A stretch of 25,692 nt of DNA, from assembly GCA_016839745.1 (NCBI GenBank), contig JAEOTS010000173.1:1-25692 (forward strand), read 5' to 3'. The position numbers were made by a program, and so were the translations under genes. Origin of the DNA: Promethearchaeota archaeon (lineage in GTDB: Archaea > Asgardarchaeota > Lokiarchaeia > Sigyniarchaeales > SOKP01). This document shows, one piece after another, positions 13,162 to 19,377 of the stretch (position 1 is the stretch's first letter; each line of letters starts with the position of its first letter). Under the pieces are notes generated by a model. The model was not told the origin of the DNA. It saw nothing but the letters and a program-made list of their open reading frames with translations, and made no database searches.

Positions 13162-16071
13162 TTGACTATTATAAACCTAGACTCAAAAAAAGTTGAAGAT
13201 TTGATTTTAAGCGGTAGTTACGAAAAAGCCGCTGGTGAACTATTTGAAATTATCGAACACCCCGCGAATTCTGATAAAGAACTAATTTACGATAGTTTAA
13301 CGTTATTAAATAAAATCTGTGATAAATCTCCCGCAATTTCGTTAAGAACGGTTAAAAATTTGGCAAACACGATAAATGATCTTAACTCCTGGGTTAGACT
13401 AGTGTCTTTAGAAATTCTGTACCAGATTACTATGTATCGCCCGAATTTACTAATTGAACTCATGCACGAGATTAGATTACGGTTATTTGACCAAGAATCC
13501 TCTATTAGACGTTTAGCAGTAAAAATAATGGGAAATTTAATTCTCTCATTACACATCGATAGAGAGGAATTGCAAAACATTATCGAAGAATTTACGGAGA
13601 AATTAATGGATAATGACTGGAAAGTTAAACTTCAAGTTATTAAAACACTTAAAAAAATATTAAATCAAGATTTTACGAAGATTCGGGAATATGAGCCATT
13701 ACTATCTATTATAATCGTAAATTTAAGGGATGAAGATGACGATGTAGCAAGATCAGCAGCAGACCTCCTAAAAATTCTTGGTACGTATTTTCTATCCAAA
13801 GAAAAAATTACTTATGTTCTATTAAATCTTCTTTACAATGAGGAATCACGAGTTAAAGAGTTAATAATCTGGTTATTCGGAGAAATCGGAAAAGAAAAAT
13901 CATCAGAAATAATCCCTATTATTCCAAAATTGATAAATCTCTTAAAAGAGAATAACTATCGAATTCAACTCCGCGTCATTGATTCTCTTGTAACTATAGC
14001 GGAGAATAATTTTGATCAAATTTGGGCAAACCTAATTACTGCACTATACACAGGTGATACTGAATTTAGAAATATTGTTATTAACGCTCTCTATCATCTA
14101 TGTCAAAGTAATATTATGGAAATTTTCAATTATATTTTTGAAGAATTTGAAAATCCTTCAGAAAATGTTAGAGACGGGGTTGCACTCGTTTTTAAACGCC
14201 TTTATGAAGAGTATCAGGTAGAAATTGAGAATGAGATCACAAAGATTTTATATATGCTAGAATCTAAATATTGGCGCGAACGACAAAAAACAATAATTCT
14301 GCTAAGAAATATCTGCTTTATCTTAGAGAGTAAAAAAGTTGCAGTTTGGATTTTTATTGAATTGGAGAAAAATTTGAGAATTGAAAATGATCCAGATGTA
14401 AGTGAAGAAATTCTCTATACAATAAAGAATATTAAGGCAAATTTTCAAGACATTGATGAAACCATCCAGGAAGTTAACGAAGATCTGGACCTATTTTTCA
14501 AAAAAATTCAGGAATTCCAAAAAATACCTGCACAATTTCGAGAAAAAATGAATTTATACATTCAAGAATTCAAATTTCATCAAACTGAAATAGAGTTAGA
14601 TAAGATTTATCGTAAAATCCTAAATAAAATAAAGAAATTTAATAAAAGATTAAACAAATTCGAATACAAAAGGTTGGCTTTCAATTTAATAGAGGATTGG
14701 GAAGAGACTAAAGTCATGATAATGGACGAACTCAGCATTATTAAGGCTTTCATTTCAGAAGTGTTTGAAGAGAAGAAGGAAGAATTTACTTTAAATTTAA
14801 AATCAAAAATTAAACTTTTAGGAGATCGTATTAATATCTTGAAAGCTCAATACGAAGATATACAGGAATATAACTTTCTTGGTCATTTGGATGATTTATT
14901 AATAGAAAAAGTTGAAGATAAAGAACTTGAAGAGAAATTCACCCAAATTACGCAGCTAAGAAATTATATGTTTAAACTAGATGATGATATTCGTGAAATA
15001 TTAGTACAAAATGTAGAATTTAACGAGATTTTCAAAACGCTTTTAAGTAAATGGGTTGGTTTCAAAATTGAACTTCAAGAATTTCTAAGCGATTTAGATA
15101 GGAAAATAAAATCAACAAAAGATAAGATAGTAGAAGAAATCCAACGCTCTAATGGAACTGTTGAAACTCAAAAATTAAACTTGCTTTCTTCAGTATTATT
15201 CCAAGGTCATATTCAATCAATAATAACGCAAGGAATTGAAGGGCTTAAAAGATTCAACGATAACTTTGATAATTTAAAATTAAAATTAGAGACATTACTA
15301 AAGAAAAGCGAATTCTCAGATGTTAGAAAGCTAATACAGATGAATACTAATCAAATTCAAAATTATATTGAAGAATACGAAAATCAAATTGATAACCTAG
15401 TTGGAAAAATGACTGAAGATAATGACGTGTTCAATCTTTTTGCGAGACCATCAGTCACAAAATTTGTTTCATTTAAAGAAGTTCTAATCAATAAACTAAA
15501 AGCCTTCACCCTGAAAAGTATCGACGAGCTTACATTGAGTCAAATCAAGTATTACCTTGACGTCATAAATCCTATTAAATTAGAAAGTCTCGCCTCTTAT
15601 ATTGACATGGATATAAACCTATTGAAAGAAAAAATTGTAAAATTCGTGAATAAGAATAAACTCAATGCACGAATTATAAAAGATGAACTCTATTCTCCAA
15701 AAAGAGAAGACATTATTGAACCGAGAGATATCCTCTTTTTCAAAAACATTAAAACTCTTGGAAATAACTTATACTTTAACTTTAAACTAAATAACCCAAC
15801 AAATCTACTATTTTCAGATTTACAGATATCTCTCAAAACACCTGAATATCTAAGCTTTATTCGTAATGAAAGTTTCCCTAAATATCTCTATCTTAATGAA
15901 TTAAAACCCGGAAATGTGTTTAAATTTAATTATGTCTTAAAATTAAAGCATAACATTGAAAAAAATTTAGCTGATCCTTCAGTTGATGAAGTAAAACTTA
16001 ATATTTATTATAAGGATCCTTTCGATATCACTCGTAAAATTACAAAAAAAATTGATCTCCTTTTACCTTAA
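13162..16071 (+). CDS. Large HEAT-repeat / coiled-coil protein with PCI-like winged helix and C-terminal Ig-like domain
   Basis: HEAT signatures in the first ~420 aa (DLNSWVRLVSLEIL, DQESSIRRLAVKIMG, DNDWKVKLQVIKTL, DEDDDVARSAADLL, NEESRVKE, ENNYRIQLRVIDSL). A long E/K/L heptad-rich middle region follows, then IKLESLASYIDMD..LKEKIVKFV..NKLNARI and a beta-rich C-terminus. Confidence 0.7.
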   Translation: MTIINLDSKKVEDLILSGSYEKAAGELFEIIEHPANSDKELIYDSLTLLNKICDKSPAISLRTVKNLANTINDLNSWVRLVSLEILYQITMYRPNLLIELMHEIRLRLFDQESSIRRLAVKIMGNLILSLHIDREELQNIIEEFTEKLMDNDWKVKLQVIKTLKKILNQDFTKIREYEPLLSIIIVNLRDEDDDVARSAADLLKILGTYFLSKEKITYVLLNLLYNEESRVKELIIWLFGEIGKEKSSEIIPIIPKLINLLKENNYRIQLRVIDSLVTIAENNFDQIWANLITALYTGDTEFRNIVINALYHLCQSNIMEIFNYIFEEFENPSENVRDGVALVFKRLYEEYQVEIENEITKILYMLESKYWRERQKTIILLRNICFILESKKVAVWIFIELEKNLRIENDPDVSEEILYTIKNIKANFQDIDETIQEVNEDLDLFFKKIQEFQKIPAQFREKMNLYIQEFKFHQTEIELDKIYRKILNKIKKFNKRLNKFEYKRLAFNLIEDWEETKVMIMDELSIIKAFISEVFEEKKEEFTLNLKSKIKLLGDRINILKAQYEDIQEYNFLGHLDDLLIEKVEDKELEEKFTQITQLRNYMFKLDDDIREILVQNVEFNEIFKTLLSKWVGFKIELQEFLSDLDRKIKSTKDKIVEEIQRSNGTVETQKLNLLSSVLFQGHIQSIITQGIEGLKRFNDNFDNLKLKLETLLKKSEFSDVRKLIQMNTNQIQNYIEEYENQIDNLVGKMTEDNDVFNLFARPSVTKFVSFKEVLINKLKAFTLKSIDELTLSQIKYYLDVINPIKLESLASYIDMDINLLKEKIVKFVNKNKLNARIIKDELYSPKREDIIEPRDILFFKNIKTLGNNLYFNFKLNNPTNLLFSDLQISLKTPEYLSFIRNESFPKYLYLNELKPGNVFKFNYVLKLKHNIEKNLADPSVDEVKLNIYYKDPFDITRKITKKIDLLLP

Positions 16072-16118
16072 TATTTTATTCAATTTTTCGTCTTAGTTGA
16101 TAATAAAAATTGATCATT

Positions 16119-16160
16119 TATCGAAAAAATGAATAATTTATAACGAAAATATTAATATAA
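16119..16160 (+). promoter_or_regulatory. Putative selD1 promoter: two CGAAAA motifs 22 nt apart, the second acting as BRE before a TATA-like box
   Basis: TATCGAAAAAA (C at 16122) and TAACGAAAATATTAATATAA (C at 16144, 81 nt before the ATG). The same layout occurs upstream of selD2. Confidence 0.55.
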
Positions 16161-16224
16161 CCTTTGTATCTTTAAATTTACAATTAATTAAGGTAGTAAA
16201 ATATAGATAATAATCGTGAGGTGA

Positions 16225-17262
16225 ATGTTACAAGAAGAAGAGAGTTATCGATTAACGCTCCAAACGAAATTATTCGGATGAAACTGTAAACTCGATTCTA
16301 AGAAATTAGACACGCTTTTGGCTAATGCAGGGTTGAAAGGGGATATCGAAGATTCTGCAATTATACCGGTTCCAAACACTAATTTAGTAATGGTTAAGAA
16401 TATTGACATCTTTACACCAATTATCGATGAACCAGAAATAATGGGCGAAATAGCCGCAGTCAATGTAACTAATGATGTATTCGCGTTAAATGTCCCAGAA
16501 ATCTCAGGTATGCTTGTTTTTCTCGGGATGAAAAAGAATATGCCTATGCATGTCGCAGAAGGAATATTGATAGGTATAAGAAACTTTATCGAGAATAAAA
16601 TTGATTCAAAAGTACTTGGTGGCCATACGATCTACTCTGAATGGCCTCTTATTGGCGGAGAAGCTTCTGGATTTATCAATAAAGATAAAATAATTAAAAA
16701 GAACTACGTGAAAGAGGGGGATGCATTAATACTAACCAAACCCGTAGGAAATCAAGCAATCATGGCAGCATACCGATTACAGAAAAATAACCCTGATCTC
16801 TTAAAGGCTTTTTCTAAAGAAGAAATTGATGAATCGATAGATTTAGCCGTAGAGTATATGACTATGCCGCTTCAAAGCGTTGTAAAAGCAATTCACTCTT
16901 ATCAAGATATGTCTTTTGTGCACTCAATGACAGATGTTTCTGGATTTGGACTTTCAGGACATTTAAAAGAGATGCTTCAAAATTCAAATCTATCTGCTAA
17001 TATCAAGAAGGTTCCGATATTTAAACTTGCTAAAGAATTAGCGTATGAATTTGGATACAAATTTGACGAATGTGAGATGCCTGAAACTGCGGGTGGAATG
17101 CTACTTTCTGTGGATCGTAAGTACGCTGAAGAGTTCTCAGAACGACTCGACAACGAGTTTCATGTGTCTAATTGGATTATAGGAGAGATTGATAACATTA
17201 ATGAACCTAGACATGTTCGCGTTTCAAAAGATGTTGAATATGTCGAAATAACTGAAATATAA
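16225..17262 (+). CDS. selD: Selenophosphate synthetase (selenide, water dikinase), selenoprotein paralog 1; TGA 16279-16281 = Sec19; 345 aa
   Basis: GAGGTGA RBS directly before ATG 16225, giving MLQEEESYRLTLQTKLFG-U-NCKL in frame with the track ORF at 16318. Further motifs: EDSAI, NIDIFTP, NVTNDVFAL, GGHTI, LTKPVG, MTDVSGFGLSGHL and ETAGGML. A SECIS follows the stop. Confidence 0.95.
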
Positions 17263-17334
17263 CGATGTTAATGATGTAGGCTAAAACACTGCAAGTGACT
17301 GCCTATTGAAAAAATCCGTTGCACAACGGCATCG
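17263..17334 (+). promoter_or_regulatory. Eukaryote-type SECIS element in the 3' UTR of selD1
   Basis: Outer stem CGATG/CATCG, ATGA at 17271-17274, stem GTAGGC/GCCTAT, unpaired AAAA at 17283-17286, mini-stem CAC(T)/(A)GTG, GA at 17308-17309, and extra hairpin CCGTT-GCAC-AACGG at 17316-17329. Confidence 0.88.
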
Positions 17335-17367
17335 AATAGCTAATCCTTATTTTTCTTTTAAATTATT

Positions 17368-17508: not shown

Positions 17509-17620
17509 AAAACGAGATTGAGTAAGATTTACTTAGATAAACTCAAAATCAAACCGTATTTATAAAGTGATGTAGCATAAGAATATTACAATTCGAACTG
17601 ATATCGTTGCTATTATTACT

Positions 17621-17661
17621 TATCGAAAAAAATAATAAATATAATCGAAAAAATTAATAAA
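17621..17661 (+). promoter_or_regulatory. Putative selD2 promoter: two CGAAAA motifs 22 nt apart, the second acting as BRE before a TATA-like box
   Basis: TATCGAAAAAA (C at 17624) and TAATCGAAAAAATTAATAAA (C at 17646, 82 nt before the ATG). This mirrors selD1. Confidence 0.55.
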
Positions 17662-17727
17662 CATTAATTCATATCAAAATCGTATTAGAATTAAATAAAA
17701 ACGAATTTCGTAAAAAGTGTGAGGTGG

Positions 17728-18759
17728 ATGACTGAAGAAAAAAAGGACTATCGATTGACAAAGCAAGTTAAAATCTATGGTTGATCGTGTAAACTTGGTG
17801 CTAATCAATTAGAAGAATTACTGGAGAAAACTGGTTTAAAAGGATTTATTGAAGATGCTGCTATCGTGCCCGTTCCATCTTCCGATATGGTTCAAGTGAA
17901 AAGTATTGATATTTTCACACCTCTCGTAGATGAACCAGAAATAATGGGCGAAATCGCTGCTTGCAATGTTACTAACGATATTTTCGCGATGAATGTTCCA
18001 GAAGTTTCAGGAATGCTCGTGTTTTTAGCTATCAATAAAAACACTCCAATGCATATTGCAGAAGGAATTCTTAAGGGAATTAAGAGATTTATGGAACAAA
18101 AATTACATTCTAAAGTAGTAGGAGGGCACACCATATATAGCGAGTGGCCCCTTATTGGTGGGGAAGCATCTGGTTTTGTAAACAAAAACAATTTAATTCG
18201 AAAACACGGTGTGAAGAAAGGTGATAAGTTACTCTTAACAAAACCAATCGGATTACAAGCTATTATGGCAGCATATAGGTTACAGAAAGATTCTCCTGAA
18301 ATGTTGGAAGAATTATCATCGAACGAACTCAACAATTCAATTAAATTAGCCTTAAACCTAATGACAACATCTAATCAAGGAGTAGTAAAAACGATTTATA
18401 CTTATAACGATTTCTCCTTTATACACGCTATGACTGATGTTACTGGCTTCGGATTGTCTGGTCACTTGAAGGAAATGCTACAAAATTCTGGATTATCTGC
18501 GATTATTGAAGCTATACCTTCAATTAAACTCTCAAAAGACCTTTCTAAGGAATATGGATACGCTTTTAGCGAATGTTTGTGCTCTGAAACGGCGGGAGGT
18601 ATGCTGATTGCTCTGGATCCGAGTAGCGTAGAAGATTTTTCTAATACGCTCTCCAGTCAAGGCATTTCTAATTGGATTGTTGGTACTATTGATAACAAAG
18701 AACCTGAACTTGTAAGGATCTCGAAAAAAGTTAACAATATTGAAATAGATAATGTATAA
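17728..18759 (+). CDS. selD: Selenophosphate synthetase, selenoprotein paralog 2; TGA 17782-17784 = Sec19; 343 aa
   Basis: GAGGTGG RBS before ATG 17728, giving MTEEKKDYRLTKQVKIYG-U-SCKL in frame with the track ORF at 17866. Further motifs: EDAAI, SIDIFTP, NVTNDIFAM, GGHTI, LTKPIG, MTDVTGFGLSGHL and ETAGGML. A SECIS follows the stop. Confidence 0.95.
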
Positions 18760-18829
18760 TGATGTCAATGAAATAGGCTAAAACACGTATGTGGGTGCTT
18801 ATTGAGAACCCCGTTGCTCAACGGCGTCA
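18760..18829 (+). promoter_or_regulatory. Eukaryote-type SECIS element in the 3' UTR of selD2
   Basis: Outer stem TGATG/CGTCA, ATGA at 18768-18771, stem ATAGGC/GCTTAT, AAAA at 18780-18783, mini-stem CAC/GTG, GA at 18804-18805, and extra hairpin CCGTT-GCTC-AACGG at 18811-18824. Confidence 0.88.
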
Positions 18830-19017
18830 AATTTTTACCATTATTTGTTTTATCTCATTATTTTTTAGTTAAATTTTGGATCATACCAATTAATTTTTTA
18901 AAAAGAATTATGTGAATTTACCTTTAGATTTAAAATTTTAAAAGGAAAAATTCGATAGTAACTCGAGCTTAAGTTTATATTTCCTCGTTTTCTTCTTATA
19001 CGAAAAGAAGAAGATTT

Positions 19018-19377
19018 ATGATTATGGATAAGGAAAAAGAATATTATAAAATTCTCGAAGTCGAAGAAGACGCTTCTGAAGAAGAAATTAAACTGGCTTA
19101 TCGTAGATTAGCGAAAAAATATCATCCCGATCTTAATAAAACCGATCCCAAGGCTAAAGATAAATTTATTAAACTGCACGAAGCCTACGATACGCTAAGC
19201 GATCCTCAGAAAAGAAAAATCTATGACCAAGCAGGATACAACCCACGAAACATAGACTTAAGTGATGTAATTTGGCGTAATAACTCCGTTCGATTTAGAG
19301 AAATTTTAAGACAAATATACGCAAATTTTTATAGAACTCCATATAATAAACCTCCTCCTGAAGGGATGTATACATAA
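19018..19377 (+). CDS. Small J-domain (DnaJ-like, class C) protein
   Basis: [46 protein letters not shown]. No G/F-rich or zinc-finger region. Confidence 0.9.

Follow-up and report, generated by a model that had tools for sequence, protein, structure and literature searches.

The window analyzed here (the whole 25,692-nt stretch of contig JAEOTS010000173.1, from the genome of a Promethearchaeota archaeon) carries two tandem selD genes, each followed directly by a SECIS element with a short G+C-rich hairpin on the 3′ side of its internal loop, and the locus raises the question of what this hairpin is: a device of selD, a neighbor that adjoins the SECIS by chance, or a part of the SECIS itself. 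Asgard SECIS elements are cited as a bridge between the archaeal and the eukaryotic reading of UGA as selenocysteine (Sec). In the reading that we favor and consider probable, each selD is followed by an Asgard, Loki-type type II SECIS, and the hairpin is an integral third arm, common to all of the selenoprotein families examined. We document the structure of this arm, its conservation, its generality, and the motif in its loop.

Both genes lie on the forward strand, each with one TGA in frame. The upstream gene, selD1 (16225..17262), encodes a selenophosphate synthetase whose UGA (Sec) is codon 19 (16279-16281) and which, when TGA is translated as U, forms a single open frame of 345 aa; in its paralogue, selD2 (17728..18759), the UGA (Sec) is again codon 19 (17782-17784). 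Both proteins score above the curated cutoff of 125 bits for the selD profile TIGR00476 (181.8 bits for selD1 and 199.7 bits for selD2), and both contain the N-terminal Sec motif G-(U/C)-x-C-K, in the form of GUNCK in selD1 and GUSCK in selD2. Sec-containing selD genes occur in 58 of the 61 relatives searched, mostly as tandem pairs. The rest of the window is taken up by housekeeping genes, among which no further Sec machinery was found. Directly upstream of selD1 (13162-16071, + strand) is a gene for a 969-residue HEAT-repeat protein with no other family match, directly downstream of selD2 (19018-19377, + strand) is one for a 119-residue protein that is hardly more than a J domain, and at 1810-2736 (− strand) is a gene of the Fumble family (type II pantothenate kinase), an unusual one for an archaeon. 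A conserved block of ~45 nt precedes each selD start by 60 to 110 nt (window positions 16112-16165 and 17614-17667); it contains ATCGAAAAAA and AT-rich, TATA-like stretches, with ATCGAAAAAA present twice, 22 nt apart, ahead of selD2, and after it, immediately 5′ of the selD ATG, stands a conserved GTGAGGTG. This paired upstream motif recurs in the closest relatives only, and the block may be a promoter or a regulator site.

The two SECIS elements, also on the forward strand, begin immediately 3′ of the TAA stop codon and, as whole three-way junctions, span 17263..17334 (element 1; 87 bits with the covariance model R1) and 18760..18829 (element 2; 92.7 bits). Each is closed by a covarying helix, H1, which pairs CGAUG (17263-17267) with CAUCG (17330-17334) in element 1 and UGAUG (18760-18764) with CGUCA (18825-18829) in element 2. 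In both elements, 3 nt separate the 5′ strand of H1 from the core, which reads AUGA at 17271-17274 with its partner GA at 17308-17309 in element 1, and AUGA at 18768-18771 with its partner GA at 18804-18805 in element 2. The kink-turn arm enclosed by the core (17275..17307 and 18772..18803) begins with H2, a stem of seven pairs in both elements (17275-17281 with 17301-17307, having a U-U at the stem base, and 18772-18778 with 18797-18803), and proceeds through four unpaired A's (17283-17286 and 18780-18783) to a mini-stem, which has four pairs in element 1 (CACU/AGUG, 17287-17290 with 17294-17297, loop GCA) and three in element 2 (CAC/GUG, 18784-18786 with 18791-18793, loop GUAU). Beyond the 3′ GA, a linker (6 nt and purine-rich in element 1; 5 nt in element 2) leads to the hairpin, H3, which is CCGUU-GCAC-AACGG at 17316..17329 and CCGUU-GCUC-AACGG at 18811..18824 and which, in both cases, adjoins the 3′ strand of H1 with no spacer. 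Rereading the sequence confirmed the coordinates and letters assigned to both elements in the preliminary description, as well as its remark that their H3 stems are identical; as for the H1 changes between the copies, all taken there to be compensatory, one is truly so (C-G to U-A) and the other is one-sided (U-A to U-G). The first run of five T's 3′ of element 1 lies at 17350..17354, and another lies 3 nt beyond element 2, at 18832..18836 (both + strand); these T5 runs are likely archaeal termination signals.

Except for the third arm, the architecture of these elements is that of a known class. The text of Mariotti et al. 2016 (PMC4989117) presents the SPS lokiSECIS as type II-like, with an additional apical stem, and the model given in the text of Huang et al. 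2024 (PMC11227280) consists of an upper stem, a mini-stem, an internal loop, and a lower stem, with a core of 5′-(A/G)UGA ... (G/A)A-3′ around an upper stem of 7 to 15 bp (≤2 mismatches) and, for selD, lower-stem pairs of the form G[A/U]G_C[U/A]C; type II denotes unpaired adenines followed by a mini-stem of 2 to 8 bp and an apical loop of 2 to 6 nt. As described in these texts, the SPS lokiSECIS and the Asgard type II eSECIS-like structure are one and the same, and the window elements share with it the position directly after a Sec selD, the AUGA/GA core, the short upper stem, the unpaired A's, the apical mini-stem, and, in the form of GAUG/CAUC, the lower-stem pattern G[A/U]G_C[U/A]C. Asgard eSECIS-like elements published by Huang et al. 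2024 number 1,224. By their location in the 3′ UTR, their core with its 7-bp stem, and their A's followed by a mini-stem, both fall within the type II eSECIS-like class, and their position, their conservation, and the intact selD frames are the grounds on which they are thought to direct Sec insertion at the upstream UGA.

With eukaryotic SECIS elements (Rfam SECIS_1; types I and II), the window elements have in common the 3′ UTR location, the AUGA/GA quartet, the unpaired A's, the type II mini-stem, and a helix 1 that closes the internal loop, whereas the published text on eukaryotic elements describes two helices with a simple internal loop, and the upper stem is shorter in the selD elements here. 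No Rfam family reached its gathering score in the window, and between positions 16000 and 19100, no family, SECIS included, matched even at E values of up to 10. A hairpin 3′ of the internal loop, or a junction, goes without mention in the running texts of PMC4989117 and PMC11227280 (as distinct from their figures and supplements); a 2026 review repeats the same SECIS models, with “hairpin,” “junction,” and “third” all unmentioned, and a literature search for SECIS together with three-way junction returned nothing relevant. The SECIS element itself is already published, and its third arm is apparently undescribed in text and may be drawn in figures.

By themselves, the two selD copies prove little, because they are paralogues, with 61% amino acid identity and with 81% mean column identity over their 3′ regions. 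The folding energies of the two elements (z = −1.4 and −0.19) are unexceptional and, taken alone, uninformative. The evidence for the junction comes from two larger alignments, the first of which (A2) consists of 42 distinct selD 3′ elements, all from the genus, aligned by MAFFT without reference to structure. In A2, 92.6% of the cells of the four-helix structure are paired (versus 30 to 47% in a control with slid partners), four of the five pairs in H1 and four of the five in H3 have changed on both sides, and none of 500 shuffles matched the observed values on four of five measures. Across these 42 elements, no variation occurs in the GA of AUGA or in the A of its 3′ GA partner, and the remaining core letters are ≥90% conserved. 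The second alignment (A3), in which 58 selD elements, including those from other families, were aligned to R1, has double changes at all five pairs of H1 and all five pairs of H3; the proportion of paired cells is 92.6% for the 58 elements as well, a level attained by none of 500 shuffles, and with slid partners, pairing across the two alignments was 30 to 48%. Being fitted to the structure of the model, A3 favors that structure, and A2, for which no structure was used, agrees. H1 and H3 are real, conserved arms of the junction: the proposal that a hairpin 3′ of the internal loop turns the element into a three-way junction, with an outer closing helix that covaries, is borne out by the 42- and the 58-element alignments alike.

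The same arrangement extends well beyond the genus. Among selD 3′ regions collected from families elsewhere in the order and class, together with those of five more families across the phylum, nearly all elements keep the same order of parts around unrelated H3 stem sequences (e.g., GCUGC/GCAGC, CCCAC/GUGGG, CUGCCG/CGGCAG, and CCACC/GGUGG); the hairpin, whose presence in other Asgard selD 3′ UTRs the preliminary description had left to be checked, is kept across the sampled families of the phylum. With a strict parser that tolerates no mismatch in a stem, 65 of 83 selD elements yield the complete junction; among the 18 that it misses, those read closely have either one internal mismatch in one of the helices H3 and H1 or a core that departs from the usual form. 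In the 65 parsed elements, the commonest length of the linker that follows the 3′ GA is 5 nt, and H3 and H1 are separated by 0 nt in 50. Phylum-wide statements rest on this parser and on by-eye reading, because R1, which was built from the genus, recovers only 11 distant selD elements at E values of up to 0.05. In several families, the core UGA doubles as the stop codon, and the 5′ strand of H1 belongs to the coding sequence. Loci L125 to L131, which come from a different family within the phylum, have a selD that terminates at the UGA of AUGA, with GAGACCG, the 5′ strand of H1, placed 18 to 19 nt inside the reading frame, such that the terminating ribosome must unwind the element.

Nor is the arm restricted to selD. 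Five FlpD/VhuD genes, each interrupted by two TGA codons, are present in the genome that contains the window, and their 3′ UTRs contain type I lokiSECIS elements with the hairpin and the closing helix at the same places. As given in the text of Mariotti et al. 2016, the type I lokiSECIS (PrxL, VhuU, HdrA-VhuD) has a 9-bp stem, an 11-nt loop with A's first and G last, and an AUGA opposite GA or AA. Under criteria that are blind to the flanks (AUGA, a 9-pair stem, a 10- to 11-nt A-rich loop ending in G, and GA or AA), 12 type I candidates were found in this genome, with the same third arm and closing helix as the selD elements: the strict parser detects H3 together with H1 in 11, against 1.16 on average and never more than 4 when the 3′ flanks were shuffled 200 times, and the twelfth has both H3 and H1 after a longer 5′ spacer. 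These type I elements differ from the selD elements in that they have no mini-stem and have other H3 loop sequences; here too, the arm is unmentioned in the published running text. The genes preceding the 12 candidates are the five VhuD/FlpD genes, PrxL-like (peroxiredoxin), VhuU-like, and HdrA-like frames (these three named by eye from motifs), and small multi-Sec ORFs.

Outside this genome, the third arm was seen by eye in seven Sec-FlpD 3′ regions from five other Asgard genomes belonging to four other families; a relaxed parser returned the by-eye junction in four of the seven, a different parse in one, a wrong core in one, and no junction in one. In 29 orthologous VhuD-type elements from 28 genomes of the genus, the H3 stem (AUGG/CCAU) and the H1 stem are invariant and therefore carry no covariation signal, neither for nor against pairing. 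Some additional frames came to light alongside these elements. On the minus strand of contig C116 of genome G000 (~14537-14770), a zinc-ribbon-like small ORF with up to four in-frame TGA codons, which is a candidate multi-Sec small selenoprotein, stands directly before a type I SECIS that has the third arm. Contigs C37 (242-436, + strand) and C157 (29694-30206, + strand) of the same genome contain ORFs with in-frame TGA followed by SECIS candidates; one of these ORFs is small and membrane-like with GGGUPKPC, and the other has two consecutive TGA codons (C-U-U).

The loops of H3 vary in both length and sequence and are often tetraloop-like (GCAA, GCGA, GUAA), and a G-C or G-U step is nearly always present: it occurs in all 12 loops from the genome itself, in all 7 from the FlpD set, and in 38 of 39 from selD elements outside the genus, compared with about half of the loops after within-loop shuffling (some of the loops were read by eye, and the sequences are related rather than independent). 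Across the 29 orthologous VhuD-type loops, the GC is kept while the other letters and the length vary. By-eye comparison of the H3 loop with the 5′ junction strand and with the apical loop revealed no consistent complementarity.

What these data make of other readings of the hairpin can now be weighed. According to the preliminary description, the hairpin might be a selD-specific, autoregulatory module that links selenophosphate supply to Sec insertion. In favor of this, the product of selD belongs to the Sec machinery and is itself a selenoprotein, the SECIS of selD is of type II, unlike the others (as stated in the text of PMC4989117), and R1 matches only the two selD elements in their own genome; this last specificity arises from the type II arm and the selD sequence, not from H3. 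Set against this is the comparison of selD 3′ UTRs with those of other Asgard selenoprotein genes, in which the same arm appears in all 12 non-selD candidates and in the Sec-FlpD genes of five other genomes, and with the arm found outside selD, the basis for an autoregulatory selD module is removed: the coupling is unsupported, and we consider it very improbable. Termination offers another account, under which H3 would be a terminator-like or 3′-end-protecting stem that stands before a T-run and adjoins the SECIS by chance. A T5-7 run does lie within a few bases of element 2 and of many of its selD2-type relatives, and a scan classed H3 and the T-run behind element 2 as terminator-like. Sites of this type, however, occur no more often than in shuffled sequence, H3 lies inside the covarying H1, no T-run adjoins element 1 or the VhuD-type elements, and in other families H1 is in coding sequence and no T-run follows the element. 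Archaeal termination needs T-runs and is not known to need hairpins. A transcript-end feature is, in our estimation, an unlikely explanation of the arm.

Energetics suggest a different role, as a two-state switch in which an alternative helix would inactivate the SECIS by hiding the core's 3′ GA. The minimum free energy (MFE) fold of element 1 is the consensus fold (−16.7 kcal/mol), whereas in the RNAfold MFE structure of element 2 (−17.1 kcal/mol) GAGAAC pairs with part of H3, and this alternative is better by 1.4 kcal/mol than the three-way fold (−15.7 kcal/mol). Yet the alternative helix is not formed by element 1 and is not conserved, with 56.7% of its cells paired, which is the level of shuffles, and one double change, leaving a switch with scant plausibility. 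It could also be argued that H1 and H3 together are a euryarchaeal-type SECIS (the GAA_A kink-turn-like hairpin) into which a eukaryote-like arm was inserted, making the third arm the ancestral and functional one. H3 is indeed a short G+C-rich hairpin on a basal helix, as in the methanogen element (Peiter et al. 2025, PMC11881835), with which the Asgard elements also share the 3′ UTR location, the G+C clamping, and an as yet undiscovered binding factor; GAA stands ahead of H3 in many elements of the genus, and in a comparison drawn from the literature only, the Methanococcales VhuD SECIS has AUGA and GAC around its main stem (text of PMC4989117). The methanogen SECIS is a single hairpin that works when shortened and is generally without an AUGA/GA arm (PMC11881835). 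Against the euryarchaeal reading, the Asgard elements do not display the asymmetric internal loop in which GAA faces a lone A, flanked by G-C clamps and with both A's invariant: the GAA before H3 is confined to part of the genus and not conserved outside it, and the opposite A is missing in most elements, given the absence of an H3-H1 spacer in 50 of 65. Both A's are indispensable in the methanogen SECIS (PMC11881835). A Loki SECIS construct was, moreover, inactive in Methanococcus maripaludis (PMC11881835), which is weak evidence. A euryarchaeal-type origin of H1 and H3 accordingly seems doubtful to us, and its chances small.

We return to the reading in which H3 is an integral arm of an Asgard SECIS. 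In this structure, H1 would be the canonical helix of a kink-turn and the AUGA/GA core with H2 its kinked, non-canonical arm, with H3 as an insertion that interrupts the non-bulged strand after the 3′ GA and ahead of H1, a topology that would correspond to a k-junction, i.e., a kink-turn with a third helix in its non-bulged strand (PMC4005666; Wang, Daldrop, Huang, Lilley 2014). In every parsed element, the 3′ GA precedes H3 and the 3′ strand of H1 follows it, as the placement in a k-junction has it, and the sequences fit the tandem G-A/A-G pairs that adjoin the bulged-strand loop of a k-junction, in that the GA of AUGA is opposite GA, with H1 on the 5′ side and a 5′ loop of 5 nt that includes AU; the non-Watson-Crick pairs are predicted only. 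In the k-junction of the TPP riboswitch (PMC4005666), the third helix adjoins the canonical helix, just as H3 adjoins H1. Unlike in the riboswitch, 3 to 7 nt intervene here between the 3′ GA and H3, and the 5′ loop is longer, such that the geometry may differ; the TPP k-junction is, furthermore, a ligand sensor, whereas the Asgard element is a recoding signal, known here from its sequence. Since most elements have no spacer between H3 and H1, H3 probably stacks on H1, and coaxial stacking is consistent with the 50 of 65 elements that are spacer-free. Such stacking would lengthen a very short lower helix and could fix the angle of the kink-turn arm.

In such an arrangement, the loop of H3, with its near-constant G-C or G-U, would be a probable second contact point for the archaeal recognition machinery, and candidate partners include EFSec, an L7Ae-type protein, the ribosome, or another factor. 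No archaeal SECIS-binding factor is known (PMC11881835), and SBP2 is absent from Asgard archaea, according to the text of PMC11227280. The genome studied here encodes an EFSec of 477 residues at L148 854-2287 (minus strand), which is of the archaeal type and without winged-helix domains, and only two L7Ae-family genes, both small. We tentatively raise the possibility that the third arm is the docking site of the archaeal SECIS reader (domain IV of EFSec, an L7Ae-type partner, or a ribosomal site) and that the SECIS ancestral to that of eukaryotes was a bipartite k-junction, of which the plain internal loop of eukaryotic SECIS elements would be the remnant after SBP2 took over, a scenario that could well prove wrong.

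For the study of Sec in Asgard archaea, the idea of selD-specific regulation through the hairpin is removed. Search models and reporter constructs that are confined to the AUGA stem-loop may be incomplete, and the folding energy of −6.9 kcal/mol for the inactive Loki SECIS in M. maripaludis suggests that a short construct was used. The third arm is also a concrete bait for pull-downs, in which wild-type RNA can be compared with RNA that lacks the arm or is mutated in its loop. With the arm included, the working model of the Asgard SECIS becomes a three-way junction in place of an internal-loop hairpin.
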